Made by a program: the position numbers and the translations under genes. DNA of 32,000 nucleotides from Candidatus Velamenicoccus archaeovorus (GTDB lineage: Bacteria; Omnitrophota; Gorgyraeia; Velamenicoccales; Velamenicoccaceae). The notes below the pieces were generated by a model that had not been told where the DNA came from, did not search any database, and saw only the letters and a program-made list of their open reading frames with translations. This document shows, in pieces, positions 8,466-31,679 of this stretch (position 1 is its first letter; each line of letters begins with the position of its first letter). The stretch lies in the NCBI RefSeq assembly GCF_004102945.1, contig NZ_CP019384.1:780001-812000 (forward strand). The letters run 5' to 3'.

Positions 8466-8912
8466 ATGACCCAAGAATCTTTAAGGGAATTCACCCGGCA
8501 GATGAGTCAGTTGATGCCGACGATCATGAGGGGGATCCTGAAACGCCATGCCGATGAGGTGACCAGCGGAGAGATCACTATCTCTCAGTATCTTGTCATG
8601 GAGATGCTAAGGCGCAAGGGGGCCATGAAGATGACACAGATCGCGCTGGAAATGGGGATCACGTTGCCGGCAGCCACGGGATTGATCGACCGGCTGCATG
8701 GCACGAAGATACTGGATAGATTGTATGATCAAGATGACCGTCGGGTGGTCCGTATCCATTTGACGCCCAAAGGCTGCAGACTTTTTTTACAGCTCAGCCG
8801 CAAAAGGGAAAAGATGGTCAAGCATATTTTTGGCAAGATCAGCGAAGAAGAGAGGCAGACCTACTTGAAGATTTTGAGGAAGATACGAGATGTTATTTAT
8901 GAGAAACCATAA
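8466..8912 (+). CDS. MarR family transcriptional regulator
   Basis: 148 aa. Winged-HTH region ISQYLVMEMLRRKGAMKMTQIALEMGITLPAATGLIDRL..DRRVVRIHLTPKG. First gene of the efflux operon. Confidence 0.9.
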   Translation: MTQESLREFTRQMSQLMPTIMRGILKRHADEVTSGEITISQYLVMEMLRRKGAMKMTQIALEMGITLPAATGLIDRLHGTKILDRLYDQDDRRVVRIHLTPKGCRLFLQLSRKREKMVKHIFGKISEEERQTYLKILRKIRDVIYEKP

Positions 8913-10455
8913 ACCGGCCGCCGCTGTTTTTTTGCTGCTGTTTTTTCTGGGAACCGTGTCATGTCTTGCGGCAGAGAAACAGGAACAAGAAAAGCCCGCA
9001 GTTCCGGGCAAGGAAGAGTTCATCAAAACAGCCAAGCAAAAGAAGACATTGACGCTGAGCGTCTATGATTGTATTCTTTTGGCTTTGAAGAACAATTCCG
9101 AGATCAAGATCGCCAGCGTCAACCCGAAGATCAAGGCCGATGACGTCCGTATTGCCCGGGCGGAGTTTGAGCCGACTTTGAATCTTGATTATATGCTGAC
9201 AGACACTACGGAACAGGCGGCGAGCACGCTTTTGGGCGCCGGGGTCTCTGCATCCAGGGAATTGAATCTTGATCTTAACGTCTCCGGGAAATTGATCACC
9301 GGCACTGAGTACAGCCTTGATTTTTTAAATAGCAGGGATTCCAGCAACTCATCGTTTCAGACGATAAACCCTTCTTATACCACAGAGCCGAAAGTGACGA
9401 TCACCCAGCCCTTGCTTAGAGGGTTCGGCATCGCGGTCAACAAGGCAGATATTTCGATCGCCGCCAATGACGAGAAAGTCTCTGAGCAGAACCTGAAGAG
9501 CATCGCCATGGACATTATCACAAAGACCAAGACGGCTTATTATGATTATTTTTACTATCGCGAGGCCTATAAGATCGCGGACGATTTCGTGCAGATGGCG
9601 TTGGACCTATTGAAGATCAACAAGCTTCGGTACGAAAAAGGCCTTGTAAGTTCCGTGGACCTTCTTGAGACAGAGACGGCCGTCTTGACGAGACGCAGGT
9701 CTTTGATCCTGGCTGAGACGGAACTGAAAAAAGCCGAGGATGAGTTGAAATACGTTACGAATATCGTAGATGATCCCCGGATGTGGAATGCGGTCGTTGC
9801 GTTGACGGATGAACCACTGTTTGACGACCAGGAAGTCGACCTCGTCGACAGCCTGGTAGCTGCTTTCAAAAACAGGCCTGACTATGAGGCCAAGCAAATC
9901 GAGCTGAAAAACAAGGACATCAGGATCAAGGTGACCAAGAACGCCCTGTTTCCTACTGTTGATCTGATCGGCAGTTTCGGGCTGAACGGCCTTGGGACGG
10001 ATTATTCCGACAGTCTGTCGAATGTCAGCTCGGATTACAAAGATTGGAGCGTGGGTGTTTCTTTAAGTCTTCCCTGGGGCGGTGCGGAACGGGCTGACTA
10101 CAATAAGTCCATCCTGGAAAAGGCCCAGGGACTGATGGAACTCAAGAGGCTGGAACAAAGTATTATTCTGGACGTCAGGGACAAGGTTAGAGGGGTTGAT
10201 TTGGCCATACAGCAGGTGGAGGCGTCTCAATTGGCGAAAGAGTCTCAGTGGAAGAACTATGAGGCGCAGAGGGAGAGGTATGCCGCAGGCCAGATCTCCA
10301 CGCATGATATGCTTGATTATCAGGATAAATATGCCAGGGCGGACCTCGATTATCTTAAAAGCCTGATCGACTACAACATTGCCCTAGTCGATTTGGATAG
10401 GAGCGAAGGTTTGACTTTGATGAACAATAATGTGAAGTTAGAAGGAGCCAAATGA
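8899..10455 (+). CDS. TolC-family outer membrane efflux protein
   Basis: Signal peptide MRNHKPAAAVFLLLFFLGTVSCLAA. The opening LTLSVYDCILLALKNNSEIKIA is typical of OEP proteins, and the two OEP repeats are present. An ATG at 8890 is an alternative start. Overlaps the marR 3' end and the MFP start (ATGA at 10452-10455). Confidence 0.9.
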   Translation: MRNHKPAAAVFLLLFFLGTVSCLAAEKQEQEKPAVPGKEEFIKTAKQKKTLTLSVYDCILLALKNNSEIKIASVNPKIKADDVRIARAEFEPTLNLDYMLTDTTEQAASTLLGAGVSASRELNLDLNVSGKLITGTEYSLDFLNSRDSSNSSFQTINPSYTTEPKVTITQPLLRGFGIAVNKADISIAANDEKVSEQNLKSIAMDIITKTKTAYYDYFYYREAYKIADDFVQMALDLLKINKLRYEKGLVSSVDLLETETAVLTRRRSLILAETELKKAEDELKYVTNIVDDPRMWNAVVALTDEPLFDDQEVDLVDSLVAAFKNRPDYEAKQIELKNKDIRIKVTKNALFPTVDLIGSFGLNGLGTDYSDSLSNVSSDYKDWSVGVSLSLPWGGAERADYNKSILEKAQGLMELKRLEQSIILDVRDKVRGVDLAIQQVEASQLAKESQWKNYEAQRERYAAGQISTHDMLDYQDKYARADLDYLKSLIDYNIALVDLDRSEGLTLMNNNVKLEGAK

Positions 10456-11348
10456 ACAAGATGCGCGACATCCATGGGGTTTTGTGTGTATGTATGGCAA
10501 TAGGCCTTTTTGCTATCGCCGGCTGCGGGTCTAAAAATGCGGAAGCCGTCAAAGAAAAAGAGGTCATTCCGGTCAAGGTGATGAAGGTGGAGACAAAAGA
10601 CTTGGAGAAGACCCTTGATTATGTAGGTAATATCAAAGCGAAAGACGAGGCCGGCGTTTACCCCAAGGTCAGCGGGAAAATCATAGAGAAAGTCAAAGAG
10701 GAAGGCAGCCCCGTTAACAAAGGGGATGTGATTGCATATATCGACAGAGATGAGGTCGGTTTTACGTTTGAAAAGGCGCCTGTCGAGAGTCCTTTGACGG
10801 GGGTCGTCGGCAGGATCAATGTCGATATCGGCGCTAATGTCGAGCCGACAACGCAGATAGCTTTTGTCGTCAACATGGAAAAGATGGAGATCGATCTGGA
10901 TATCCCTGAAAAATATTTGCCTTTTGTTGCTCTGGGGCAGGAGGCGAAGATCACGGTCGACGCCTATCCGGGTGTGGTCTTTATAGGCAAGGTGACGCTG
11001 ATCAGTCCGGTGGTGGACTTAGAGACCCGCAGCGCGCCCATTGAAATCACCATTGACAATAAGGAGGGGCGTCTGAAATCCGGGATGTTTGCCGATGTCG
11101 GGCTTATCATTGAAGAGCACAAGAATGTCCCGGTCGTTCTTAAAGAGGCCCTGATGGGAAAAGGGGACAATCTTTATGTTTATGCCGTTGAAGATCACAA
11201 GGCTTCGATGAGAATCGTCAAGGCGGGCATCCGTTATGGAGAATTCGTGGAGATCACAGAAGGCGTCAAGAGCGGCGATGTCGTGGTGGTGATGGGGCAG
11301 CAGAGGTTGCGTGACGGCGTTTCTGTCGAAACCGAGGAGTTGAAATGA
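10452..11348 (+). CDS. RND efflux periplasmic adaptor (MFP/HlyD family) lipoprotein
   Basis: Lipobox LFAIAGC. Barrel-sandwich/lipoyl motifs (VYPKVSGKIIEKVKEEGSPVNKGDVIAYID). ATGA overlap with the RND gene at 11345-11348. Confidence 0.9.
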   Translation: MNKMRDIHGVLCVCMAIGLFAIAGCGSKNAEAVKEKEVIPVKVMKVETKDLEKTLDYVGNIKAKDEAGVYPKVSGKIIEKVKEEGSPVNKGDVIAYIDRDEVGFTFEKAPVESPLTGVVGRINVDIGANVEPTTQIAFVVNMEKMEIDLDIPEKYLPFVALGQEAKITVDAYPGVVFIGKVTLISPVVDLETRSAPIEITIDNKEGRLKSGMFADVGLIIEEHKNVPVVLKEALMGKGDNLYVYAVEDHKASMRIVKAGIRYGEFVEITEGVKSGDVVVVMGQQRLRDGVSVETEELK

Positions 11349-12460
11349 GTCTTCCTGAATTTGGAGTCAGAAAACCCGTCAGCAATCTGATGATATTCAG
11401 CGCCATCATCATCCTGGCTTTTTACAGTCTGACGAGGATCGGCATTGATATCATGCCGGAGATCGAACCGCCGATCATTTCCGTTATCGCCGCTTATCCG
11501 GGCGCCAACCCGCAGGATGTCGAGATCAAGGTGACGGAACCGCTGGAAAACCAGCTGGCCACGACACCCGGACTGGAGAAGATCACATCGCGTTCCATGG
11601 AAGGAGCTTCTGTTATCTCCTTGAAGTTTAAGTGGGGGACAAACCTGGATGAGGCATCCAACGATATCCGCGACCGCATTGAACAGGCCAAGCGTTATTT
11701 GCCTGATATCCCCGATGAGATGGATAATCCGTTTCTCTATAAGTTCAACACAGCCAATATTCCCATTGTTTTTTTCGGCATCACGGCTAACCAGACTTAT
11801 CCTGAGCTTTACGACCTTATCGATAATTCGGTAGGCGATGCCCTGAGACAGCTACCGGGCGTCGGGACGGTCAATCTTTTTGGCGGTCTTCAGAGACAGG
11901 TTAATGTGTGGATCGACAGGGAGCGGCTGGAAGGATACGGTTTTTCCATCCTGGACATAACAAATGCGCTTGATAAGGAAAATATCACTCAGCCTGTCGG
12001 CAACATCAAAATGGGCTTGACGGATTATCTTCTGCGCCTTCCGGGAGAATTTGCGACTCCTGATGAGATCAATTCCGTCATCCTGGGCAAGAGCGGCGGC
12101 AAGATCGTTTTTCTGAAAGACGTCGCACGCGTTGAGGACGGCTTCAAGGAAGTCACGATGATCGTGCGTATCAACCGGAACCCAGGGCTTCTGATGCAGG
12201 TGCAGAAGCAGACAGGCACCAACACGGTCGAGGTGGCTGAACGCGTCAAGAAGAAGATCGCGGAACTCGAGAAGACGCTGCCCTCCGATGTGCATATGCA
12301 GATCATTTTTGATACTTCCGAGGATATCATCAATTCGGTCAATAGCTTGACGTCTTCTGTTTGGGTGGCTATTGTTTTGGTTATTTTTGTCGTGTGGTTT
12401 TTCCTGAGGCAATCCGCTCCCAGCATGATCATTGCTTTGACAATTCCCTTTTCTCTTCTA
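11345..12460 (+). pseudogene. RND (AcrB/HAE1-like) efflux pump, N-terminal 372 codons, truncated by an IS insertion
   Basis: Typical RND N-terminus (RKPVSNLMIFSAIIILAFYSL..). The reading frame runs into IS sequence after ..TIPFSLL and stops at 12487. Confidence 0.85.
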
Positions 12461-13003
12461 ACTCAGCGGGAGTTCCCCGCCTGTTAAGGCGGGGGTGAGA
12501 GCCCGTTCCTGTGTCTTCCGGAGGTTATGATATACTGAATCCATGCGATTAAAGCGATCCGCCCACGCGGTCTATCAGACGCAGTACCACATTGTATGGG
12601 TTACCCGGTATAGACGAAAAATCCTCAACAAGGGTGTCGCCAAGTACCTGAGAACGAAACTTCAAGAGGCATGCGAGTATTATCCTGATTGGGAGTATAT
12701 GGCGATCGGGATCGCCGAAGACCATCTGCATCTGCACATGGTCATTCCGCCGAAATACGCTGTGAGCATGGTTGTTGAGACATTGAAGAAAAATACGTCC
12801 CGGGAGCTGAGCTTGAAGTTTCGTTTCCTCAAGAAGTTCTACTGGGACAATGAGGGTATGTGGTCCACGGGATTTTTCGTCTCAACAGTAGGCGTCAATG
12901 AGGGTGTCATCAAGAAGTACGTTGAGATGCAAGGCAAGGAAGACACAGGACAAGCGGAGCTTGGCTTTTAACAGAACCCCGCCTGTAAAGGCGGGGGAAT
13001 CTA
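12461..13003 (+). mobile_element. IS200/IS605-family insertion sequence (tnpA-only, IS200 type), 543 bp
   Basis: Carries a Y1/HUH transposase gene flanked by near-identical subterminal hairpins in the same orientation: CCCCGCC-TGTTAA-GGCGGGG (12475-12494) and CCCCGCC-TGTAAA-GGCGGGG (12977-12996). TCTA sits just 5' of the left junction (12457-12460) and forms the last 4 nt of the element (13000-13003). Because of that shared TCTA, the boundaries are uncertain by up to 4 nt. Confidence 0.85.
12543..12971 (+). CDS. tnpA: IS200/IS605 family transposase TnpA (Y1 HUH)
   Basis: YQTQYHIVWVTRYRRKIL, the HUH motif EDHLHLHMVI, WSTGFFVSTVG, and C-terminal KKYVEMQ carrying the candidate catalytic Tyr. 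142 aa. Confidence 0.92.
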   Translation: MRLKRSAHAVYQTQYHIVWVTRYRRKILNKGVAKYLRTKLQEACEYYPDWEYMAIGIAEDHLHLHMVIPPKYAVSMVVETLKKNTSRELSLKFRFLKKFYWDNEGMWSTGFFVSTVGVNEGVIKKYVEMQGKEDTGQAELGF

Positions 13004-15010
13004 TTCACCTTTGTCTATCTATTTTTAAGCGGCAAGACCATCAACACGATCAGTCTTTCTTCCGTTGCCATTGCGAGCGGCATGGTCGTAGATAATGCCA
13101 TCGTCATTGTCGATAATATCCATCGCCGTCTGGAGAAGGGAAACAGGCCGCAAGAAGCGGCGATCTTCGGAGCCAACGAGATGTTCCTGGCGATTGCCGC
13201 CTCGACGATGACAACCGTTGTGGTCTTTTTGCCCATGTTGTTCATTTCGGGTGTTGTCGGTATCATGTTTGGTGAATTGGCGATCATCGTTATCGTAACT
13301 CTCCTGGCGTCTCTCTTTACGGCCGTTACTTTCAGCCCGATGCTTTGCGCCAAATGGTTAAGAGTAAGTTCTCCGTCGCAGAAAAAACAAGGCATCTTCG
13401 CGAAGTTTTATGATTTTTCCGAGAAGATCTTTACTTCATGGGAAAATTTCTATGCTCATGCTCTTGAGCGGTGTCTGAGGCATAGGAAATTTACCTTGAT
13501 CGGCTTTTCCATTGTGTTTGCATGCAGTCTTCTGTTGGCGCCTTTTGTCGGCAATGAATTCATTCCTGAGGAGGATTCCGGCGACGTCAGGGTGACAGTC
13601 GAGCTTCCTATCGGGACCCGGGTCGAAGAGTCTGACAAGGTGGCAAAAAGAATCGAAGATATTTTTGTCAAAGAGGCGCCAGAGAGACGATATCTATTCG
13701 TTAGGAGCGGCCAGGTAGCCGGTATCGGCAGGACGTCTGGTCAGGCGGCCGGAAGCCATGTTGTTTCTGCCGGCGTCAAGCTTGTGTCCAAAACAGAACG
13801 AAAGCGTTCCGTCAAGGAAGTCGGCCAGGTTATAAGAAAGCAGATCGCCAAGATCCCGGGTGTCCTGAAGGTGGATATCACGACAGGCAACCCTCTGGGG
13901 CAGTTGATCACGGGAACGGGGGGCAAGAGCATCCAGGTTGAGATCATCGGTCATTCTTTTGAGGCGACGGATGCCGTTGCCAACCAACTCAAAAATATCA
14001 TGGAGAAGGTCCCCGGCGCTGTCGATGTCTCCATCTCGCGCGAGCTGAAGCGGCCTGAACTGGTCATCAAGGTCGACAGAGAAAAGATAGGGGTCCTAGG
14101 GATTGATATGGAAACGATCGCCGACAGTGTTAAGACTTATATCGAAGGCTCGGTGGCAACAAAATACCGTGAAAAAGGCGAGACCTATGATATCTATGTC
14201 AGGCTGGAGGAGTCCAACCGCCAAAAGATCGAAGATGTTGAGAATCTGGCCATCGCATCGCCTTATTCCGGCAAGCAGATAAGACTGGGCAATATCGCGA
14301 CGATCTCGGAGACCGTTGGTCCCGAAGAGATCGAGCGCCAGAACCGCGAAAGAGTGGTGCGTGTTTCCTGCAATACTTTTAATAGGTCATCCGGGAAAGT
14401 CATTGAGGATATCAAAAAGGAAACAGACAAGATGGTATTGCCGGCCGGCATCTATATAAATTTCGGCGGCGAGGCGGAAGAGCAAACCAAGGCTTTTAGG
14501 GATCTGGCCCTTCTTTTGGCCTTGGGTATTATCCTCGTCTATATGGTTATGGCGGCTCAGTTCGAATCTCTGCTGGACCCTTTTATTATCATGTTTGCGG
14601 TGCCTTTTACATTTACGGGCGTTATTCTCGGTCTTTTGGTGACCCGCAGCACATTGAACGTTATCAGTTTTCTTGGCGTTGTTATGTTGATGGGCATTGT
14701 CGTCAATAATGCCATCGTTTTGATCAGTTATATCAATATCCTGCGCGCCCGCGGAATGTCGATGGAGCAGGCCATCACCCAGGGCGGCAAAGAGAGACTG
14801 CGGCCCGTCCTGATGACGACGATCACGACCCTTGTCGGTCTCCTGCCGTTGGCTCTTTCGAGAGGCGAGGGTTCGGAGAGCTGGCAGCCTTTGGGTGTGA
14901 CTATGGTTGGGGGGCTGCTGGTATCTACGTTTATTACGATGCTTTTTGTCCCTATACTGTATGCCGTTTTTGAGAATAGGCTCAAGAAGAATGGAGGGGC
15001 GAAATCATGA
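13004..15010 (+). pseudogene. RND efflux pump, C-terminal 668 codons, downstream of the IS
   Basis: In the same frame (mod 3) as the N-terminal fragment. Reads FTFVYLFLSGKTINTISLSSVAIASGMVVDNAIVIVDNIHRR.. (a conserved RND TM4 region) and continues to a typical C-terminus. Joined to 11345-12460 it gives ~1040 aa. Confidence 0.85.
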
Positions 15011-15109: not shown

Positions 15110-15412
15110 ATGTCTAACGGGATGAAGATGGTCATGATCTGTTATAACGAAGCCATTGACGCCGAGGTGATGGAGGCCTTGCGAGTGTGTTCTTTAAAAA
15201 ATTATACAAAGGTTATTGGTGTTTTCGGCAGCGGAGAGACATCGGGGATTCATCTGGGAAATGATATCTGGCCTGGGAAAAACAATGTTCTTTATGTGGC
15301 CTGCGAAGATAAAGACGGTGCGCGTCTCCTTGCCTGTGTCAAAGAGCTGCGCAAACAGATCGGAAAAGAAGGCGTCAAAGCGTTCGTCCTTCCTCTGGAA
15401 GATCTTAGCTGA
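15110..15412 (+). CDS. PII-like (GlnB-fold) small transporter-associated protein
   Basis: MKMVMICYNEAIDAEVMEALRVCSLKNYTKV..GSGETSG.H.G....PG.N.VLYVACEDKD resembles small PII-like proteins I recall being encoded downstream of RND/heavy-metal efflux pumps. An AAGGTGG SD lies upstream of ATG 15110. The start is uncertain (15110, 15122 or 15128). Confidence 0.6.
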   Translation: MSNGMKMVMICYNEAIDAEVMEALRVCSLKNYTKVIGVFGSGETSGIHLGNDIWPGKNNVLYVACEDKDGARLLACVKELRKQIGKEGVKAFVLPLEDLS

Positions 15413-15568
15413 AATACCAAGATCCCCCACTCTTATTTTGCAGGTTGCCGATTTCCACGATCCCTGCGCACTAATAAAATTCCTTTTACAAAAGTTTGTT
15501 TATTGAGTAAACTATTTTTGTGCGTTTTGCTTCTTCCTTAGAAAAAAGGAGTCCCAGACTTAAAGTCT

Positions 15569-15579
15569 GGGGGGGGGGG
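15569..15579 (+). repeat. Homopolymeric G11 tract fused to an 8-bp hairpin
   Basis: CCCAGACT-TAA-AGTCTGGG (15553-15571) runs directly into eleven Gs (15569-15579), 88 nt upstream of the ATG at 15667. Confidence 0.9.
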
Positions 15580-15666
15580 ATTCTACGGAAGTAAACTTTT
15601 TTGCAAGACGTTCGTCTAAACAGACGCAAGGATTTTTGGGTGTTCGTGGCGAAAAAAGGAGGAATT

Positions 15667-16635
15667 ATGAGAAAAAGAATGATTCTGCTGTGCATGAGCG
15701 CAGGTGTCTTGTGTTTGACGGGCACCTTGGCTATGGCGCAGGAAGACGAGACGACCTCCGATTCCGGTACGAATCTGAAACAAGAAATCGGCTCTGACAA
15801 GCAGGAGCTGAAAGGGCAGCAGGACCAGATCAGGCAGAACGCCCAGTCTGCCAGGCAGGAAGAGAAAAATCTGCGAGACCAGATCCATCAGGCTGTGCAG
15901 TCCGGCGATGAGGAGACGGCCAAGCAGCTTCGTCAGCAGCTTCACGAAGTTCATCAGGGGAATATCCAGCAACGCCAGCAAGATATGGAAGATTTGCAAT
16001 CATCACGCCAGGAATTGAAAGAGGACATTAAGGGTGCGCGTGAGGAAAGAGGGAATCGGCCCCCAAGAAGAGGGCCCGTTGGGGAACAGCCGCCAGGCGG
16101 TCAGGTGTCTTCGGGAGAAGGGGCGCCAGGACTGCAAGGACCGGAAGGGGGCTATAGACATCGCCCTCCCAGAGAATTTCGTGAGGGCCCCCGCGATCTG
16201 AGGGAAGACCGTAGGGACAGAAGAGAGGATGTCCGTGACCGGCGGGAAGACAGATGGGACAGGAGGGAAGATGTCCGTGACCATAAGGAGGATGTCCGGG
16301 ATCGCAGGGAGGATATTCGTGATCGCAAGGAAGACGCCTGGGATGCCAGACACAATCCCCCTAAAGGCACGGAGGCTTGGAAGAGAGATAAGATGGAAGA
16401 CATCCGCGACCGGCGGGAGGATGTAGCGGACCGTCGCGAAGACAAGCGCGATCATAAAGAAGACAGGATTGATCGGCGCGAAGATAGGCGCGACAGGCAT
16501 GAAGACGTGCGCGACAGGAAAGAAGATGTTCGCGACAAGCGGCATCATTCCGGAAGTCCTGCAAAAAAGGGGAGTCCGAAATCCATGTCTGGTAAAAGTG
16601 ACAAAAATCCCAAGAAGTACAAACCAGTTGAATAG
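15667..16635 (+). CDS. Secreted Gln-rich coiled-coil protein with 14 D-R-R-E-D-x-R heptad repeats
   Basis: SD AAAAAGGAGGAATT-ATG. Signal peptide MRKRMILLCMSAGVLCLTGTLAMA|QE. Q/E/K-rich helical region (residues ~35-125), a Pro/Gly linker, two blocks of 7 heptads, and a Lys/Ser-rich tail. No family recognised. Confidence 0.85.
   Translation: MRKRMILLCMSAGVLCLTGTLAMAQEDETTSDSGTNLKQEIGSDKQELKGQQDQIRQNAQSARQEEKNLRDQIHQAVQSGDEETAKQLRQQLHEVHQGNIQQRQQDMEDLQSSRQELKEDIKGAREERGNRPPRRGPVGEQPPGGQVSSGEGAPGLQGPEGGYRHRPPREFREGPRDLREDRRDRREDVRDRREDRWDRREDVRDHKEDVRDRREDIRDRKEDAWDARHNPPKGTEAWKRDKMEDIRDRREDVADRREDKRDHKEDRIDRREDRRDRHEDVRDRKEDVRDKRHHSGSPAKKGSPKSMSGKSDKNPKKYKPVE
16195..16533 (+). repeat. 21-nt-periodic coding repeats (7 + 7 heptads separated by a 15-aa spacer)
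   Basis: Block 1 (16195-16341): DLREDRR DRREDVR DRREDRW DRREDVR DHKEDVR DRREDIR DRKEDAW. Block 2 (16387-16533): DKMEDIR DRREDVA DRREDKR DHKEDRI DRREDRR DRHEDVR DRKEDVR. Codon choice differs between units (cgt/cgg/agg/aga/cgc for Arg). Confidence 0.9.
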
Positions 16636-16685
16636 CCCGGAATGGGACTAAAAACAAGATAATACAAGATGATAAGAGAAGAAAA

Positions 16686-16713
16686 AGCCCCCTGAGGAAC
16701 GAGGGGGCTTTTT
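16686..16713 (+). terminator. Rho-independent terminator after the repeat-protein gene
   Basis: AGCCCCCT (16686-16693), an 8-nt loop, AGGGGGCT (16702-16709), followed by a T run. Confidence 0.8.
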
Positions 16714-16726
16714 CTTGCCGAAAGCA

Positions 16727-16755
16727 TTTACTTCTTGGCAGCGATTTCGTATAAT
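16727..16755 (+). promoter_or_regulatory. Candidate sigma70 promoter of the pilin gene
   Basis: TTTACT (16727-16732), a 17-nt spacer, then TATAAT (16750-16755). Confidence 0.5.
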
Positions 16756-16763
16756 ATGTGCCT

Positions 16764-17198
16764 ATGGAGATGAAAAAAATTGACCATAAAGGGTTCACGC
16801 TGGTTGAGATCCTGATTGTTGTCGCCATCATTGTCACGGTGGCCGCCATCGCGATCCCAAATCTTGTCAGGGCTAGGATCAATGCCAATGAGGCGTCTGC
16901 CGTAGCTTCTTTGAAAACGTTGACGTCCGCGGCAGAGGCTTTTAGGATGGCTCAGATTCCGGCAAGATTTCCAGGGAATCTAAGCGAAATGAGCGGGACA
17001 GAGCCGCCTTTTATCGATGTGGTTCTTGCCAGCGGCAATAAGTCTGGTTACAGTTTTGCTTGGACAGGGGGCACGAATACCTATTCCGTTGTTGCCGCAC
17101 CCCAGACTCCTAATGTGACAGGCGTCCGGGAGTTTTTCCTGGATCAATCCGGTGTCATCAGGGTCGGCAACACCTCATCAGGAGCGCCCATCGAATAG
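16764..17198 (+). CDS. Type IV pilin / prepilin-type N-terminal cleavage-methylation domain protein
   Basis: Class III signal MEMKKIDHKG|FTLVEILIVVAIIVTVAAIAIPNL with Gly-1, Phe+1 and Glu+5. The track ORF begins at GTG 16758; ATGs are at 16764 and 16770. Confidence 0.9.
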   Translation: MEMKKIDHKGFTLVEILIVVAIIVTVAAIAIPNLVRARINANEASAVASLKTLTSAAEAFRMAQIPARFPGNLSEMSGTEPPFIDVVLASGNKSGYSFAWTGGTNTYSVVAAPQTPNVTGVREFFLDQSGVIRVGNTSSGAPIE

Positions 17199-17619: not shown

Positions 17620-17800
17620 TGAGCATATATGAAAGATTGACGCAGACAAGCGGTATTATAATAGGTTATGAAAAATGATATTCAGACACTTATTTTGAGT
17701 ATTTGGTTTTACCTGGTTTTAATTCCTTTAAAATATGTCCCAAAAGCCCTACTTTATCTTACTCGGGATGAATTCCGGTCAGGACGGCCGGTGAGATGGT

Positions 17801-18809
17801 CTAGCCGCCATATCTGGCGTTGATTTTATCCTGGGCCATGAGGAGGGCCTCCCTTCTTTTTTGTTCAGGCAACAAGGGAGGGGTTTCATCAAAAACGAGG
17901 CCGGAGAGGGTGACACCGAGGGCTCTGACAGGCCTAAAAATGCCCTTCTTTTGGCCAAAAATGGCCCTAGAATGCATGAATATCTCCCAGCCGTTAAAAG
18001 GGGTATTGAAAAGGTTTTTTGTCTTACAAAAGACTCATTTTTGGAATTGATCCATAGGCTGATGGTCTTTCCTTGGCACCTGTTTTTTCTGGCGCGCCGG
18101 GCGACCATTTCTGACAGCATTCTGAGCCATGAAAAGACAACATTCCGGTTACATATTTCTGCTGACAGCGTGTAGGAATGGCCGATGGATTTTAGAGGTT
18201 CGGCTGTGTCGGTTGCGCCTTTTCTGTAGGATGGATTTCCATCTGTCCTTAAAGCTTGGTACAGCCAGGATCCAACGGTCCGGCCGAAATTCGCAACCAG
18301 CATGCTTTCGGGTGTGGTTTTAAGCTGGCCGCAGATGGAACAGGCTGATCCAAAACCTCCTTTATTTATGTATTTATGCGTTTTTTATCCGCCTTCGCGC
18401 AGCCGCCTTGGACGATCCAGAGCCTCTGGCGGGAAAATCATGGGCGTGAACTCGTGGATGCCCGCCGGCTGTCAGCCGGCGAGGTCTCGGCAACGGCGGA
18501 AATGCAGACAGGCACTACGGGCTCGCCTCTCGGCAAAGCCGAGGGCTGTAAAGCCGCGGGGGCTCCATAGTTTTTCCAAGCTCCAAGGGGCGGTCCGAAA
18601 ATGGGGTCCAGGCTGTGCGGATGCCCGATTGAATTCTTCGATACTTACACAGTTCTACAAAGGGTGAGAATTCTGCAACGGATCGGATATTTTGTAGGTA
18701 TATCTGGGGAGGAATCGTGATTCTTTGTGTTGGACGCCGCGGTGGTGGGTACCTGAAGAATGCCACACATTTGTGTGGATATCAAGGCAGGTAAGGAATG
18801 GGTTTACAT
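17801..18809 (-). pseudogene. dinB: Y-family DNA polymerase IV (DinB-like) pseudogene with multiple frameshifts and stops
   Basis: The track ORF 17779..18303 encodes ..FGRTVGSWLYQALRTDGNP..KSIGHSYTL..VARRARKNRCQGKTISL..RQKTF (DinB thumb/little-finger pattern) and then loses similarity. A different frame continues ..NTPFNGWEIFMHSRAIFGQKKGIFRPVRALGVTLSGLVFDETPPLLPEQKRREALLMAQDKINARYGG*, with its stop at 17801-17803. Upstream, palm-domain remnants (FSPFVEL, VSIEEF, PLELGK) are scattered over different frames. An ATG with an AAGGAGAG SD at 18809 is followed immediately by TAA. Confidence 0.7.
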
Positions 18810-18837: not shown

Positions 18838-19320
18838 TTAAAAAGCCGCCTTTTTGGCCGTATTCAGCATAAAATTAATCACGCGGTTGCTGACGCCTTC
18901 CTTGACCAGCGTGCTGACTTCTTCGGCTGTGAGCTTGAAGACGGCGCGCGTTATGGCGATCTTGTCAATGATGACGTCATCGTTGATTCCGGCTTTGCTC
19001 AAAAAGATGATGTCTGAAATGCCAAGTTTTTCCTGATCTGAAAAGATCGCTTGTTTCGGCTGGACTTCGATTGTCTTTTCGATTGTCTTGATGACGGTTT
19101 GCGTATAAACGCGGGTGTGAGGCCTGGGAGGCCAGTAATAATATCCGTGAGGATAGTGACCGTAGTTGGTGTAGAAAAGACGGTCTCTTCCATGTCTCTT
19201 GCCGTAGATAGGTCTGTCTGCGTTGGTGAAACCAAGACTGACGACATAGTCTGCCCTTGCCGCAGGAACGCACGTGAAAAACACTGCCATGACGATCAGA
19301 ATGCCTGCCCTTTTTTTCAT
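18838..19320 (-). CDS. Secreted protein, unknown function
   Basis: SD AAGGGGAG. Signal peptide MKKRAGILIVMAVFFTCVPAARA|D. A Tyr/Pro/His-rich segment (YGHYPHGYYYWPPRPH). A C-terminal helical module ISDIIFLSKAGINDDVIIDKI..LTAEEVSTLVKEGVSNRVINFML. Confidence 0.7.
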   Translation of the reverse strand: MKKRAGILIVMAVFFTCVPAARADYVVSLGFTNADRPIYGKRHGRDRLFYTNYGHYPHGYYYWPPRPHTRVYTQTVIKTIEKTIEVQPKQAIFSDQEKLGISDIIFLSKAGINDDVIIDKIAITRAVFKLTAEEVSTLVKEGVSNRVINFMLNTAKKAAF

Positions 19321-19506
19321 AATTTTCTCCCCTTATTTACCCCGTTAGAGAAAGCCGCCGTTTTCAAGCGGCGGTTACCCCGATTGAAGTCGACGGTGGT
19401 CTAAAACCACTATCAGCGTAGACCGGTTGTAGAACAGACTTCCCTGATGGGGGTTTCCTTATGATGTTTTATATATTAGACGATTTCAGGGGTGAAAGGT
19501 TTACCT

Positions 19507-27496: not shown

Positions 27497-28708
27497 TTAG
27501 AGGTAGACAATGTCCTCTGGATGATAGAGGGATAAGAATAGGAGCATATATTCTTTCAGGTGCCGCGTGAGGAGGAAGTTATTTTTGATGTGCTGGCGTC
27601 CGTTTTCTCCGAGCTTCTTGGCATATTCAGGATTATTGAGGAGTTGTTTGATGGCAAAGGCGGCACCCTCGATGGAATGGCACATCAGTCCAGAAAATTT
27701 ATGTTTTACCTGCAGCGAGATGCCTCCTACATGGGAAGCGACGATTGGTTTGGCTTTCCAGAGCGCTTCGGCAACCGTCAGGCCGAATCCTTCCTTGAGA
27801 GATTTCTGGACGATGACGTCGGAAGCCCTTTGCAGGGCATTGATGAGGATATCATCTTGTGGCAGGAGAAGGACATGGATGTCCTTGTCTTTTTTTGCCT
27901 TTTCCTGGACTTCGGCCAGGACTTGGATGCCTTCGGGATCATCCGTGGCCGTTCCCCCCGCCAAAATGAGCTGACAATCAATGTATCTTTTGACTTGCAG
28001 GTAGGCGTCGATGACGCCTGAAGGGTCTTTGAGCCTGTCAAAGCGTGAGATCTGCGTGATGATGGGTTTGTCTTTGACGATGTTGTATTTGGCGAGGGCC
28101 GCGTCGATGACCTCCTGAGGGAGTTCCTTGTTTTTGTCGCTCAGGGGATCGATAGAAGGCGAGATCAGGTATTGACGGATCGGCAGGCGCTGCGAGAAGA
28201 TCGGCGATGAAAAGACAGCAGCGTCGTAGTTCGGAATGAACGACATCAGGAAATCCCAAACTTTTTTATGAGGATGCGAGACATCGATATGGCAGCGCCA
28301 CAACCATTTATTCCCGGCTTTCTTTTTGATGAGGCCGATCGGCTGGGGATCGTGGATGAAGACGACGTCGCCGTAGGTGTTCATGAGTCCTAGATTCGTC
28401 TCGGTGGTTTCCATGAAGATTTCCAGATCGTGGTCCGTAATGTCTTCAGGCCGGCCGTGCAGGGCGTTGTGGAATTTTTTTGTAACGTCAAAAAATTGGG
28501 ATCCCCCTTTGATCAGATCCCAGCGGCTGTCGACGCCGAGCTCGCCCAAGAGGGGCACCATGCGGTTGAGGATTTCTGCTACCCCTCCGCCGACGGACGT
28601 AGAATTGACATGCTGGATGACTTTGCCCTTGAGGCGTTCGGCAAGCAGCTTCAGGTCGTCGATCGTGGACTGTCCGACAATAGGGATGTAGTCGTTGATG
28701 TGCACCAT
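27497..28708 (-). CDS. GT4 glycosyltransferase, trehalose synthase (TreT)-like
   Basis: N-terminal HVNSTSVGGGVAEILNRMVPLLGELGVDSRWDLIKGGSQFFDVTKKFHNALHG is very similar to archaeal/bacterial TreT as I recall it. The C-terminal GT1/GT4 EX7E region is SLKEGFGLTVAEALWKAKPIV. Confidence 0.75.
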   Translation of the reverse strand: MVHINDYIPIVGQSTIDDLKLLAERLKGKVIQHVNSTSVGGGVAEILNRMVPLLGELGVDSRWDLIKGGSQFFDVTKKFHNALHGRPEDITDHDLEIFMETTETNLGLMNTYGDVVFIHDPQPIGLIKKKAGNKWLWRCHIDVSHPHKKVWDFLMSFIPNYDAAVFSSPIFSQRLPIRQYLISPSIDPLSDKNKELPQEVIDAALAKYNIVKDKPIITQISRFDRLKDPSGVIDAYLQVKRYIDCQLILAGGTATDDPEGIQVLAEVQEKAKKDKDIHVLLLPQDDILINALQRASDVIVQKSLKEGFGLTVAEALWKAKPIVASHVGGISLQVKHKFSGLMCHSIEGAAFAIKQLLNNPEYAKKLGENGRQHIKNNFLLTRHLKEYMLLFLSLYHPEDIVYL

Positions 28709-28711
28709 GGG

Positions 28712-29383
28712 TCAAGCCGCCAATCTTTTTTCGACGATCTTCAAGATCGTTTTTCTAAGACCGTCCAGCGTATATGTGTAGGGATCGAGCTTGGCAATTT
28801 TTTCGGCCAACGCTTTTTCCTGCAGTGACGTATCCAGCCAGTTGGAAAAGTCGTTGGTCCCTTTTTCCAGCCTCAGATGCGCCTCAAAGATGTGAAAGTA
28901 GATGGAATCGATCGTGACCTTCCTGAGCGCCTCGGCAAATTCCCTTAGGTCCGTCGCCGCCTCATTCGTGGGGGCGATAAAACTGACGGATTTGATGAAA
29001 TGAAATTGTTCGTCTTCTCCGGCAAAACGGAGGTTCGCCTTGGGATTGTGTTTGAGGTATTTCTCGATCGTCTCGACGATTTTTTCACGCAGGGAGCGGA
29101 TCGTCTTGTACTGGATCGTGTCGATGCTGGCCAGCCTCTCTCCCAGTTCATCGTCGCCCAGGACTTCCCTCACCCAATAGGCGAAGTCATTCGGAGGCTC
29201 CGGAGAGAGATACTGGTGCTGCTGCAGGAAGCGGTGGGTGTGATGGTAGATGCAAGAGCCAGGCACGCCTTTGATATGTTCCAGGAGTTGTTCTAAATTG
29301 GAAGCCTTGATGCCCAAGAGCTCCGAGAGATGCCACCGGGTGTAAAAGCGGAAAGGTTCCTTGGCCTTGATGGGTTCTGTCAT
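28712..29383 (-). CDS. Conserved hypothetical protein (possibly DUF5752-like) embedded in the trehalose cluster
   Basis: 223 aa, soluble and helical. Separated by 3-nt gaps from both neighbours, so it is in the same operon. The DUF name is from memory only. Confidence 0.6.
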   Translation of the reverse strand: MTEPIKAKEPFRFYTRWHLSELLGIKASNLEQLLEHIKGVPGSCIYHHTHRFLQQHQYLSPEPPNDFAYWVREVLGDDELGERLASIDTIQYKTIRSLREKIVETIEKYLKHNPKANLRFAGEDEQFHFIKSVSFIAPTNEAATDLREFAEALRKVTIDSIYFHIFEAHLRLEKGTNDFSNWLDTSLQEKALAEKIAKLDPYTYTLDGLRKTILKIVEKRLAA

Positions 29384-29386
29384 GAT

Positions 29387-30217
29387 TTATTTGGGAGATT
29401 TCAGCAATACGATGCGTTCCAGGAACTTGTGGACCTTGTCCGTGTTCGAGAGGTAATATTGCGCCGAAGACGTCCCCGGCACCCCGACGAAAACGGTTAT
29501 TCCCTTGTTCTTCAGCGCACGGAATGCGTCTTCGTCTGTTATATCATCTCCGACGTAGAGGGGCAAGACGTTTCTTCCTTTGGCAGTCCCTCTTCTTTTT
29601 TTCAGCAACCACAAGACGATCTTGCCCTTGTCCCAATCCACGGGCGGCTGGATTTCCAGGATCATCTTGCCGGTTTTCATGCGGATAAGATTTTTTGCGG
29701 CTGCCTCTTTTACAGTCTCCCGGAAGATCCCCCGGATACTCGGAAAGTTATTTTTCTCTGCGAGACGGTAATGGACGGCCAGGAAGGGTTTTTTGTTTTC
29801 AACGACGACCCCCCTTATTGTTTTGTATCTGTCTTTGAGCGTTCTTTCCAGACGGGCAATGACCCTGTTGTAGGCGGACGGGATGCGGATTTTGAACCTG
29901 ACACCGCTTCCCTCTGCCTCAAAACCGTGATTTCCGGAATAGACGATGTTTTTTAGGCCGATCATGGATTTGAGATCGGAGATCGCCCTGCCGCTGATGA
30001 CCGCCAGGAGCACTCCGGGGACAGCGGCAAGAGTTCGAAGGACCTGTTTTGTTTTTGTCGGCAGGACGGCCTGCGGGGGTGTCGGCGCGATTGGGCTTAA
30101 TGTCCCGTCATAATCCAGGCAGATGAGAAGCGGATGCTGCCGGATGCGCTGCCGGATGCGGTCCCAATCACGAAAGAGGCTCTTCATCATAGCAGCTGTT
30201 TTATTCCTTGAATTCAA
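29387..30217 (-). CDS. otsB: Trehalose-6-phosphate phosphatase
   Basis: HAD motifs LDYDGTL, VISGR, GNHG and YVGDDITDEDAF. Confidence 0.9.
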   Translation of the reverse strand: MNSRNKTAAMMKSLFRDWDRIRQRIRQHPLLICLDYDGTLSPIAPTPPQAVLPTKTKQVLRTLAAVPGVLLAVISGRAISDLKSMIGLKNIVYSGNHGFEAEGSGVRFKIRIPSAYNRVIARLERTLKDRYKTIRGVVVENKKPFLAVHYRLAEKNNFPSIRGIFRETVKEAAAKNLIRMKTGKMILEIQPPVDWDKGKIVLWLLKKRRGTAKGRNVLPLYVGDDITDEDAFRALKNKGITVFVGVPGTSSAQYYLSNTDKVHKFLERIVLLKSPK

Positions 30218-31679
30218 ATTTCAACAATTCGGAGATGATCTTTCCTGCCCAGCGGAAGATGTTGTTGTTTTGTACGATCTCCCGCATTTTTACCATGCGT
30301 TTCTGTTCTTCGTCTTCCGGAAGATTCAAAGCCACATAGATGCCTTCCGAAATGTTTTCCCGGTCGTAGGGATTGACGAGGATGGCGTCTGTCAGCTCGC
30401 GCGAGGCGCCGGTAAACTCGCTTAAAACGAGAGCGCCTTTGTTGTCGATGCGACTGGAAACAAATTCCTTGGCGACAAGATTCATTCCGTCGTGGAGGGA
30501 ACTCACCAGGCAGACGCGGGCATGGCGATGCAGGGCCAGAAGCTCCTGGAAATTTAAGTGGCGGCGCACAAGGATGATGGGTCTCCAGTTATCCGTTGAA
30601 TGTTTCCAGTTGATCTGTTCGACGAGGGCGTTGATTTCGTCGTTCAAGGCTTTATATCTGGGGATATGGAGACGGCTGATCTCGCCGACCTGGAAGAGCG
30701 TGATTTTTTCTTTGAGGTCCGGCACTTTTTCCAGGAGGCGGTCAACGGCCAGCATCCTTTCGGGGATACCTTTTGTGTAATCAATGCGGTCGATGCCCAA
30801 CAGCACCGTCTGGTTTTCCAGGTGGAACTCCTCGACCAGGGCTTCTTGTATTTTTTGGACGCTTTCGGATGCCGCAGCGGAACTAATACCTTCAAAATCG
30901 ACGCTGATGGGATAGGGGCGGATAAGCGTTTCGTGCCCCCCCTTGATAACGGAGAAGCGCTCCCTGTCGATTTTGCTTTCTAATTCCCTGTCGACGGCTG
31001 TCAGGAAATTATCGCAATGGTAACGGATGTGGAAACCAAGCAGGTCATTGGCGAGGAGCCCTTCAAGGATCTCCTTTCTCTGGGGACAGATGCGAAAGAC
31101 TTCGTGTGACGGCCACGGGATATGCCAGAAGTGCGCAATGATGAGCTGGCTGCCTGCTTTTTCTTTGAGATAACGGGGCAGAAGACAAAGATGGTAATCT
31201 TGGATCCAGATGAAGGCCTTTTTATCCCCTATTTCGTTTAAGATCGCATCTGCGAATTTTTGGTTAACCCCTTCGTAATGTTTCCAGTCCTCTTCGCGGA
31301 ATACCGGCCGTTGGAATGTCAAGTGGCACATGGGCCAGATGGCCTCATTGGAATAGCCGAAATAGTAGCCATTTTCTTCTTCTTTGGTGAGCCAGACGCG
31401 CTTGAGCGTGTAGGATGGGTTGTCGGGAGGGACGCGGAGCTTGCCGTCTTTGTCCGTTACTTTCCTGTCGGCATCTCCGGATCCCTGAGCAACCCATAAG
31501 CCGTTTGAGGCCTGCATGACGGGGTCCAGCGCCGTGATAACACCGCCGGCGCCGCGGATGTATTCAACTTTTCCTTTTTTAAACTGATGAACGTAGGGTT
31601 CCCTGTTGGAGACGACGATAAAAAGATAATCGCCCAACTTTTCGCCGACGAGTTGATGGAGGGTTTCTTTTGTCCACAT
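30201..31679 (-). CDS. otsA: Alpha,alpha-trehalose-phosphate synthase (GT20)
   Basis: VVSNREPY, GGVITAL, IWIQDYHL, FWHIPWP and VNPYD motifs. Overlaps the otsB start by 17 nt. Confidence 0.92.
   Translation of the reverse strand: MWTKETLHQLVGEKLGDYLFIVVSNREPYVHQFKKGKVEYIRGAGGVITALDPVMQASNGLWVAQGSGDADRKVTDKDGKLRVPPDNPSYTLKRVWLTKEEENGYYFGYSNEAIWPMCHLTFQRPVFREEDWKHYEGVNQKFADAILNEIGDKKAFIWIQDYHLCLLPRYLKEKAGSQLIIAHFWHIPWPSHEVFRICPQRKEILEGLLANDLLGFHIRYHCDNFLTAVDRELESKIDRERFSVIKGGHETLIRPYPISVDFEGISSAAASESVQKIQEALVEEFHLENQTVLLGIDRIDYTKGIPERMLAVDRLLEKVPDLKEKITLFQVGEISRLHIPRYKALNDEINALVEQINWKHSTDNWRPIILVRRHLNFQELLALHRHARVCLVSSLHDGMNLVAKEFVSSRIDNKGALVLSEFTGASRELTDAILVNPYDRENISEGIYVALNLPEDEEQKRMVKMREIVQNNNIFRWAGKIISELLKFEFKE

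Follow-up and report, generated by a model that had tools for sequence, protein, structure and literature searches.

Two heptad blocks in an exported Omnitrophota protein as the likely arms of an antiparallel, charge-patterned helical hairpin

Introduction

Long antiparallel alpha-helical hairpins are known from several well-described proteins, such as the membrane fusion protein (MFP) adaptor AcrA, the arm of seryl-tRNA synthetase, the iSH2 region of p85 and PspA/Vipp1, which have in common two long helices, a tight turn, heptads and variable length. A second described class, the single alpha-helix (SAH) or charged single alpha-helix (CSAH) of myosin VI/X and caldesmon, is highly charged, approximately neutral, helical, repetitive and low in hydrophobicity, can act as a spacer and places opposite charges at i/i+4. 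Here we analyse a gene at 15667-16635 (plus strand) of a 32,000-nucleotide stretch of the genome of Candidatus Velamenicoccus archaeovorus (NCBI RefSeq assembly GCF_004102945.1, contig NZ_CP019384.1, positions 780,001 to 812,000), hereafter the window, to whose first letter all coordinates refer. The gene encodes an exported protein with two blocks of seven D-R-R-E-D-x-R heptads on either side of a 15-residue spacer, and it resembles the first class in its two long predicted helices, tight turn and heptads of variable number and the second in its general composition and possible spacer role. A first-pass annotation made from the letters alone had proposed an ER/K-type SAH rod. Our analysis indicates that the two blocks are likely to be the two arms of an antiparallel helical hairpin, and the models and sequences point to a hairpin ~8 nm long and not to a rod of ~17 nm.

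The heptad blocks as probable paired arms

The module comprises three elements:
16195-16341, plus strand: hairpin arm 1, made of seven DRREDVR heptads (aa 177-225) with Trp225 as last residue; AlphaFold2 (AF2) helix at 175-229, block-mean predicted local distance difference test score (pLDDT) 89-94
16342-16386, plus strand: hairpin tip/turn DARHNPPKGTEAWKR (aa 226-240); non-helical in AF2 at aa 230-235
16387-16533, plus strand: hairpin arm 2, made of seven heptads (aa 241-289) that start with DKMEDIR; AF2 helix at 236-289

The units of block 1 read DLREDRR, DRREDVR, DRREDRW, DRREDVR, DHKEDVR, DRREDIR and DRKEDAW, and those of block 2 read DKMEDIR, DRREDVA, DRREDKR, DHKEDRI, DRREDRR, DRHEDVR and DRKEDVR. 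D1, E4 and D5 are invariant in 14/14 units, and the final position is taken by Trp, Ala or Ile in units 3 and 7 of block 1 and units 2 and 4 of block 2, exactly as the first-pass annotation had it. The unit had also been called charge-neutral, which holds for the consensus, the whole repeat region having a net charge of -2; it is rich in Asp (29 D, 15 E). Among 2,456 units of related modules we observe the same exact heptads with D1/E4/D5 as in the 14 of the window, with D1 and E4 at 100% and D5 at 89% D and 11% N, and this conservation suggests selection on side-chain geometry, beyond charge alone. Position 6 is V/I in ~60% of the units, a single hydrophobic residue is found at position 6 or 7 in 76% and at both in 8%, and position 3, three residues before position 6, is R/K in ~75%.

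The repeats are old at the DNA level. The window units share 60% identity as DNA and 66% as protein, where a residue is identical its codon is also shared in only 41% of the comparisons, and Tandem Repeats Finder reports only short arrays (77-86%), which upholds the synonymous codon variation noted at first. Selection on the peptide, claimed on the same grounds, is borne out by the ratio of nonsynonymous to synonymous differences (pN/pS) computed against five orthologues, which is 0.16-0.22 in the heptads, 0.27-0.41 in the N-terminal domain, 0.19 to 1.0 in the linker and 0.5-1.0, viz., weakly constrained, in the tail. The codon divergence between units and the pN/pS values together thus argue that the gene is expressed and constrained.

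It is the charge geometry that sets the heptads apart from an SAH. The earlier claim that acidic and basic residues are spaced at i/i+3-4 is wrong, as like charges are paired there ~2:1, with 0.41-0.45 like-charged i+3/i+4 pairs per residue against 0.18-0.22 opposite-charged ones. Counted at i+4 only, the attractive and repulsive pairs per residue are 0.20 and 0.43 in block 1 and 0.18 and 0.41 in block 2, where the E4K4 model that served as the SAH yardstick gives 0.92 and 0. The helical charge moment of the heptads is 0.43-0.53 versus ~0.01 for SAH sequences, and on a helical wheel D1, E4 and D5 form an acidic stripe while R2, R3 and R7 form a basic stripe around V6, the only hydrophobic position, which lies at the centre of the basic stripe. 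An arm on its own, having like charges at these spacings, should be electrostatically unfavourable and would need a partner. The ER/K-type reading falls on this like-charge pairing, on the Gly/Pro turn in the middle of the region and on the equal length of its arms; high charge alone does not make an SAH, and a tempting mis-annotation is corrected here.

Helicity of the repeat region, by contrast with its charge spacing, was anticipated correctly. AF2, using a 23-sequence family alignment for the full protein, predicts a second helix pair at 175-229 and 236-289 with pLDDT ~90 and a six-residue break at NPPKGT, and the module alone, modelled with 34 diverse modules, yields helices at 4-58 and 65-121 with a pLDDT of 84.6 and a predicted template modelling score (pTM) of 0.40. 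Foldseek searches of the PDB initiated with the full model found weak, insignificant matches (E > 0.1) to antiparallel coiled-coil hairpins.

The lengths of the arms provide evidence of another kind. When every module in the retrieved proteins and loci is parsed, the heptad counts of the two arms agree in 76% of the 142 modules that have a 9-residue turn and in 69% of the 32 that have a 15-residue turn, though this counts less in favour of a hairpin than it seems to, as related sequences are non-independent and the statistic overstates the independent events. Permutation gives ~20% equality, with maxima in 10,000 shuffles of 0.32 (9-residue turn) and 0.50 (15-residue turn), and in a larger set of 239 non-redundant modules the arms are equal in 74%. 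The number of heptads per arm ranges from 2 to 10 and the matched states from 2/2 to 9/9; in the subfamily of the window protein we observe 3/3, 5/5, 6/6, 7/7, 8/8 and 9/9. A paired antiparallel hairpin predicts that the two arms gain or lose heptads in step, and neither a single rod nor a disordered chain would lead one to expect this.

The turn and its surroundings are also conserved. The consensus of the 15-residue turn is D-A-x-H-N-P-P-x-G-T-E-A-W-[RK]-R (32 modules) and that of the shorter 9-residue turn is D-A-x-H-D-G-G-x-x (142 modules). Arm 1 closes with W, Y or I in ~42% of the modules (W225 in the window), the unit that opens arm 2 has L/I/M at position 3 in 65% versus <=10% elsewhere (M243 in the window), and V/I at position 6 is commonest near the turn and decays toward the open end of arm 2. 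As a separate observation, some relatives carry an alternative tip, viz., an insert of 37-40 residues, for example KANRLGNLEERLANTDDPKEKARLERQITHLKKNIHR or one containing AFESGDRETVKELTQKINYL, in place of the short GG/PP turn (relative proteins and loci are labelled here with P and L numbers, respectively: P0055, P0070, P0071, P0072, P0098 and P0103; L027, L056 and L068). This insert resembles the SGDxETAK motif of the N-terminal hairpin of the window protein, and the arm numbers of its carriers are equal in 0/11.

Gene and protein layout

The remaining features of the gene and its product are as follows:
15656-15662, plus strand: Shine-Dalgarno sequence AAGGAGG, 4 nt before the ATG; GGAGG is kept at the same place in orthologues
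15667-16635, plus strand: coding sequence, 322 residues plus stop codon; pN/pS against orthologues 0.24-0.45
15667-15738, plus strand: signal peptide (aa 1-24), with basic n-region MRKR, hydrophobic core and an AMA-QE cleavage-type site, as read from the sequence
15772-16050, plus strand: N-terminal Q/E-rich alpha-hairpin, helices at aa 36-79 and 82-128, turn S79-G80-D81; AF2 pLDDT 94-98
16051-16188, plus strand: Pro/Gly-rich disordered linker (aa 129-174); pLDDT <50 over aa 139-168
16534-16632, plus strand: basic Lys/Ser-rich disordered tail, net charge +7; pLDDT <50

The coding sequence at 15667-16635 is confirmed in the window, and the reading frame proposed at first is a real gene by its Shine-Dalgarno sequence, its 149 homologues and its purifying selection. 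The ribosome-binding site had been described as strong, and AAGGAGG is indeed read 4 nt 5' of the ATG. The alternative TTG start at 15601 was rejected as the orthologues begin at the ATG that bears the Shine-Dalgarno sequence, and the minus-strand open reading frames (ORFs) at 16003-16548 and 16361-16888 were set aside as unsupported by-products of the repeat composition.

The product begins with MRKRMILLCMSAGVLCLTGTLAMA, followed by QEDE; Ala24 is invariant in the family alignment, and the A-Q-E motif after the hydrophobic segment recurs across the family. The predicted export through Sec stands, the N-terminal signal being kept in homologues and a signal-like segment being found in 190/205 module proteins. 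We rejected a lipoprotein on a reading of the sequence, in which neither Cys of the signal peptide has a lipobox before it. The claimed layout, viz., a Q/E-rich helical region, 7 + 7 units, a 15-residue spacer and a Lys/Ser tail, was recovered in full on translation. The invariant columns of the family, A76, G80, A85 and L88, all lie within the N-terminal hairpin, whose tip carries a UVR-like motif (QIHQAVQSGDEETAKQLRQQL). In relatives, NPPGYNPPGAG repeats occupy the linker region, and the tail of most is Gly-rich and basic (GVRDHGAGVGAGKGQGG...RR) instead of Lys/Ser-rich.

A module found in many phyla

The heptad hairpin is a mobile, undescribed extracytoplasmic module in many phyla. A module profile searched against 1.84 billion representatives recovered 590 clusters (50% identity level) at E <=1e-3 and 214 at <=1e-10. 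The family pattern consists of n copies of D-[RK]-[RK]-E-D-[VI]-R, a turn of the form (W)-D-A-x-H-[DN]-G-G-x-x or D-A-x-H-N-P-P-x-G-T-E-A-W-[RK]-R, and n more heptads, all behind a signal peptide, and the window protein fits it; its own module (n = 7/7, 15-residue turn) aligns with 33 modules at 53-86% identity. The full-length architecture of signal peptide, Q/E hairpin, PG linker, heptad hairpin and basic tail is found mainly in Omnitrophota, the nearest genome locus being L004 of 'Candidatus Omnitrophica bacterium UBA6210' with 67% identity.

Outside this architecture the module occurs in diverse contexts. In Bacteroidota it is found by itself after a signal peptide, as in a 132-residue protein of Lacihabitans soyangensis KCTC 23259 and in Chitinophagaceae and Emticicia; it is combined with EF-hand pairs in Planctomycetota, Gammaproteobacteria, Nitrospirae and Victivallales; it is fused to DUF6600 and to an unnamed C-terminal domain (...AISGFKNEGQFLAALHASKNLNIPF...); and it lies N-terminal to a small outer-membrane-protein-like beta-barrel ending in GLGWAF in P0086 and P0112. 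Multiple copies are present in proteins of 750 to 3,000 residues, with 3-7 copies in those of 1,250 to 2,990 residues (P0121, P0151, P0166, P0179). The count of proteins with a hydrophobic segment upstream of the module, given above, refers to those having enough N-terminal sequence, and most of the 15 signal-less exceptions look like mis-started or truncated gene calls. Two Omnitrophota paralogues, L013 (6968-8155) and P0048, combine the N-terminal Q/E hairpin with an EF-hand pair, which precedes the full heptad hairpin in L013 and takes the place of arm 1 in P0048; their sequences suggest that EF-hands and heptad arms are interchangeable partners.

No family had been recognised at first, and searches agree: Pfam and NCBIfam gave only sub-threshold coiled-coil noise for the window protein (FapA, DUF1771, Rad50) and have no model that covers the module, the module profile retrieved no PDB sequence at E <=10, and the full-family profile matched the PDB weakly and through the N-terminal tip motif only. 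The literature on peptide strings, bacterial SAHs and charge zippers yielded no description of the repeat, and that on DUF3106, a family encoded beside heptad genes, only unrelated mentions.

An ECF-type promoter and ECF sigma neighbours

Promoters of extracytoplasmic function (ECF) sigma factors have an AAC at -35, CGTC or CGTA at -10, a spacer of ~16-17 nt and a -35-proximal T-tract of the form tGAAACnTTTt (PMC5758882). Upstream of the heptad gene, GTAAAC-N16-CGTCTAA matches this consensus, and the gene is followed by a terminator:
15591-15619, plus strand: ECF-class promoter; -35 GTAAAC at 15591-15596 with T-tract, -10 CGTCTAA at 15613-15619, AAC-CGT spacer 16 nt
16679-16716, plus strand: intrinsic terminator, a GC-rich stem-loop and, after it, UUUUUCUU; fold energy -26.5 kcal/mol, z = -5.3 relative to shuffled sequences

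With these signals, the heptad gene of the window is predicted to be its own transcription unit. When the intergenic regions of five orthologous loci are aligned, no blocks other than GTAAAC and CGTCTAA are invariant. The 32-kb window holds two copies of the strict motif AAACYTTT-N10-14-SGTYTAA versus 0.00 expected, and a relaxed motif is present upstream of 10/81 heptad genes versus 0.8 expected, including Bacteroidota and Vampirovibrionales copies, with lineage-specific variants visible at other heptad loci.

The neighbourhoods provide a further link to ECF sigma factors. Pfam-confirmed genes for an ECF sigma, a zf-HC2 anti-sigma and/or DUF3106 lie within 3.5 kb of the heptad gene in 17/81 loci from >=5 phyla (Omnitrophota, Gammaproteobacteria, Nitrospirae, Micavibrio, Vampirovibrionales and others), usually in the order sigma / anti-sigma / DUF3106 / heptad or heptad / sigma / anti-sigma. 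In a near/far control made over equal total sequence, the nearest 3.5 kb hold 14 sigma and 10 DUF3106 genes versus 5 and 0 in the next 4.5 kb (3.5-8 kb). On these signals it is reasonably probable that the heptad gene belongs to an ECF regulon.

Two other elements were noted in the intergenic DNA of the window. A second ECF-type motif, AAACCTTTCACCCCTGAAATCGTCTAA at 19476-19502 (minus strand), lies upstream of an ORF at 18838-19320 (minus strand) for an exported protein of 160 residues that has no Pfam match and whose gene is also present in L001, L008 and L017; the motif precedes this gene in L001 (11217-11243, minus strand) and L008 (12630-12656, minus strand) as well, and from these sequences the gene is likely a second member of the same regulon. 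Between the gene for a PG0541-like protein (see below) and the ECF-type promoter is a stem-loop, cccagactttaagtctggg, followed by a run of 11 G (15553-15580, plus strand); the scan calls it a terminator on the minus strand only, and the intergenic regions of the orthologous loci have no such run of G.

Neighbouring genes

A resistance-nodulation-division (RND) efflux operon precedes the heptad gene:
8466-8912: MarR
8890-10455: outer membrane efflux protein (OEP)
10452-11348, plus strand: MFP adaptor, 298 residues; lipoyl domain uninterrupted over aa 75-137
11345-15010: RND permease, split by a transposase
15110-15412, plus strand: PG0541-family P-II-like protein, 100 residues; NCBIfam 'PG0541 family transporter-associated protein', E = 5e-24

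Six other loci, L001, L003, L004, L005, L008 and L016, share the arrangement MarR-OEP-MFP-RND-(PG0541-like)-heptad gene, and a more divergent RND operon precedes the heptad gene in L010, L017 and L027. A PG0541-family protein follows the RND permease in the window and in six orthologous loci. As its lipoyl domain is uninterrupted, the MFP of the window has no alpha-hairpin insert, which makes it similar to Borrelia BesA, likewise without an alpha-helical hairpin; the MFPs of the L001 and L003 operons have no helical-hairpin Pfam match either. An IS200/IS605-family TnpA (ORF 12543-12971, plus strand; 12470-13000) is inserted inside the RND permease gene and is flanked by near-identical hairpins (ccccgcctgttaaggcggggg and ccccgcctgtaaaggcggggg), leaving permease pieces at 11345-12487 (model positions 5-370) and 13082-15010 (396-1008). 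Judged by this interrupted frame, the pump beside the heptad gene is probably inactive in this genome.

Directly downstream of the heptad gene is a pilin/pseudopilin gene (16758-17198, plus strand) with the prepilin-type N-terminal methylation motif GFxxxE and its own sigma-70-like promoter, TTTACT-17-TATAAT at 16727-16755; the gene keeps this position in six orthologous loci. Beyond it lies a remnant of a DinB/IMS-family DNA polymerase IV (17762-18333, minus strand) that covers residues 218-408 of the orthologue only and is frameshifted near 18005; the window has lost the N-terminal half of this gene, which is intact (~400 residues) in L001, L003, L008 and L010. Finally, a trehalose cluster at 27497-31679 (minus strand) encodes a TreT-like GT1 (27497-28708), DUF5752 (28712-29383), a trehalose-phosphatase (29387-30217) and a GT20/OtsA-like protein (30201-31679), and this gene content suggests compatible-solute synthesis and osmotic or desiccation adaptation in this organism.

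A proposed mechanism and its alternatives

We propose that the heptad protein is a Sec-exported, non-enzymatic periplasmic protein in which two long antiparallel alpha-hairpins would be joined by a disordered Pro/Gly linker. Each arm of the second hairpin would be a Janus helix, with an acidic stripe of D1/E4/D5, a basic stripe of R2/R3/R7 and, inside the latter, a hydrophobic seam formed by V/I at position 6 or W/F/I at position 7. The arms would hold each other through inter-arm salt bridges, the thin V/I seam and a small hydrophobic tip cap, the conserved turn W-DAxHNPPxGTEAW forming the hairpin tip, and length would be tuned by the gain or loss of heptads in both arms together. An ECF-sigma-type promoter would drive the window copy as an independent unit, and it is for this promoter on an independent unit that we would place the gene in an extracytoplasmic stress regulon. 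As a guess, the hairpin may be a charged element for binding or scaffolding and fill a functional niche like that of Spy/CpxP-type periplasmic stress proteins. Two stripes per helix cannot both be satisfied within a two-helix hairpin, so the protein may self-associate. It may also be sensitive to ionic strength or to divalent cations; a link to cations would be in keeping with the recurrent fusions to EF-hands, with the strict choice of D or E by position and with the tolerance of N for D at position 5. Towards the combined reading, viz., a Sec-exported paired-arm hairpin protein under ECF-type control in an envelope-stress response, the evidence tips slightly, and any specific biochemical role is doubtful.

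Several observations weigh against this proposal. The module-only model found no Foldseek matches in the PDB, and the contact between the arms is one that we infer, the pTM of this model being just 0.40. Unit-by-unit covariation between the arms is positive at all offsets, a composition effect, and has no register-specific peak. Asp-rich sequences with like charges at i+3/i+4 have a low helix propensity, and AF2 can over-predict repeat helices. Valine at the core position is flanked by Arg on both arms, which is awkward for a two-helix antiparallel coiled coil, and the true assembly may be an oligomer. With regard to regulation, no ECF sigma gene lies within the window, the motif is found upstream of only 1/14 neighbouring ECF sigma genes, leaving autoregulation unsupported, and about half of the loci have neither ECF nor RND context. 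Since the sigma is absent from the window and the sigma genes mostly have no motif, we infer the ECF dependence.

Of the alternatives, a disordered polyampholyte, hydrophilin-like or late embryogenesis abundant (LEA)-like or Hero-like, in which unfolded repeats would shield or solubilise in the periplasm, would account for the extreme hydrophilicity of the protein, for a like-charge spacing and Asp content that disfavour an isolated helix, for the disordered linker and tail and for the modest pTM of the module, and the trehalose-synthesis cluster in the same window hints at an osmotic or desiccation lifestyle. It has to contend with positions so strict that D is told from E (D1 and E4 at 100%), with the conserved turn, tip cap, equal arms and recurrent hydrophobic seam, and with a heptad pN/pS that is unusual for sequence-tolerant protectants in a repeat without the 11-mer periodicity of LEA proteins; we regard it as improbable.

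We give a similarly low probability to divalent-cation (Ca2+/Mg2+) binding or buffering, in which a continuous D1-E4-D5 ridge would fold or associate in a cation-dependent manner. EF-hand pairs have been fused repeatedly to the module in exported proteins, including gammaproteobacterial and Nitrospirae copies beside an ECF sigma (L014, L022, L072, L062), the EF-hand pair of P0048 stands in place of arm 1, and the D/E discrimination with tolerance of D-to-N at position 5 resembles ligand geometry over plain charge. Yet the module is net-neutral, unlike typical low-affinity Ca2+ buffers, an Arg partner is near every acidic residue, no known Ca-binding motif was matched, and the fusions could equally mean that the hairpin is a mere scaffold. 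Another possibility, to which we assign a still smaller chance, is that a core-poor, salt-bridge-stabilised charge-zipper fold reports periplasmic ionic strength, pH or divalent cations as a sensory or modulatory partner, with DUF3106, of a widespread ECF sigma / anti-sigma pathway of envelope stress, arm length (2 to 10 heptads) setting the response threshold.

That the heptad protein is an accessory RND subunit, supplying hairpins in trans that bridge a hairpin-less MFP and the outer-membrane channel, is very unlikely. A hairpin of ~8 nm is within the range of MFP hairpins, the MFP of the window has no hairpin insert and the operon order before the heptad gene recurs in several loci. Against this, the heptad gene has its own ECF-type promoter and terminator and remains intact and purifyingly selected beside an RND gene that IS200/IS605 has split, and no RND genes adjoin ~20 other full-length homologues or any of the cross-phylum modules. 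Moreover, hairpin-less adaptors such as BesA are reported to function without a hairpin (PMC3807786). The adjacent RND operon is thus probably a neighbour and not a partner. Least probable of all is an ER/K single alpha-helix in which each block or the whole region forms a stable monomeric, periplasm-spanning ruler, as the very high charge density, neutral unit, predicted helicity and variable heptad number (2 to 10) that would suit it are outweighed by the like charges at i+3/i+4 with their large charge moment, the excess of Asp over Glu, a conserved Gly/Pro turn that is predicted non-helical and divides the region, and equal arm lengths that a single rod leaves unexplained.

If the paired-arm structure is correct, the module would be a natural hairpin with essentially one hydrophobic position per heptad, the rest being a fixed D-R-R-E-D-x-R charge ladder, and would provide a model for electrostatic helix pairing and for the design of salt-, pH- or cation-switchable hairpins. 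The ~590 clusters of this undescribed extracytoplasmic module extend over Omnitrophota, Planctomycetota, Bacteroidota, Proteobacteria, Nitrospirota and others and tie it to an uncharacterised ECF sigma / anti-sigma / DUF3106 neighbourhood, for which the promoter motif, the candidate sigma factors and the cultured carriers Lacihabitans soyangensis and Emticicia offer entry points.

Comparison with known systems

Among described hairpins, the antiparallel coiled coils named at the outset differ from the heptad module in having an a/d hydrophobic core, where the module has Arg/Lys at the a-equivalent position, and no sequence relation to them was found in the PDB; of the features of a canonical coiled coil, the module has the heptad periodicity and is without hydrophobic residues at both a and d. 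With respect to MFP hairpins in particular, the heptad protein has no lipoyl, HlyD or beta-barrel domain and is encoded by a separate gene. From the SAH it is distinguished by like charges at i+3/i+4/i+7 in segregated stripes in place of opposite charges at i/i+4, by being Asp-rich and not Glu-rich, and by its strict heptad, single hydrophobic position, turn and equal arms. LEA proteins and hydrophilins differ in their period of 11 as against 7 residues (21 nt), and the strict positions and heptad pN/pS of 0.16-0.22 separate the module from them further.

The Spy/CpxP/ZraP group resembles the heptad protein in consisting of small, exported, all-helical hairpin proteins with highly charged surfaces that are induced by envelope stress. 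In E. coli, spy is co-regulated with RND pumps by BaeSR; the heptad gene similarly pairs with stress regulators, viz., ECF sigma factors, and sits beside an RND operon. The regulators differ, being two-component systems for the former and of the ECF sigma class for the latter. No LTxxQ is present in the window protein and neither PF07813 nor PF13801 matched it in Pfam, the Metal_resist family being found in 1/23 members at E = 0.027.

The N-terminal hairpin, and not the heptads, has at its tip a possible likeness to the helix-turn-helix hairpin motifs of UVR and P22 scaffolding proteins. A search with the full-family profile matched, through this tip, the P22 scaffolding helix-loop-helix at E = 0.003 and, weakly, the UvrB C-terminus at E = 0.5-0.7, and Pfam UVR (PF02151) is detected in 5/23 family members at E <=1 (best 1.8e-5), the window protein giving no match at this threshold. 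UVR motifs are cytoplasmic protein-interaction elements, whereas the window protein is exported. In some relatives it is between the heptad arms, at their tip, that the SGDxET element is found.

DUF3106 proteins (PF11304) are likewise exported, charged, helical-repeat proteins encoded beside heptad and ECF sigma / anti-sigma genes; their repeat and sequence are different, and Pfam scans of heptad proteins showed no homology. EF-hands (PF13202 / PF00036) were found by Pfam in many module-bearing relatives and not in the window protein. The charge zippers proposed for TatA, where the model is contested in vivo (PMC5601993), and for pestivirus Erns have in common with our proposal the idea that complementary charge ladders hold a helix hairpin; they are short membrane-associated segments, whereas the heptad module is long, soluble and exactly periodic. 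The alpha-hairpin fold class and the ECF regulon class to which we compare the heptad protein are known, and the heptad chemistry, the matched variation in arm length, the tip motif and the module family appear to be new.

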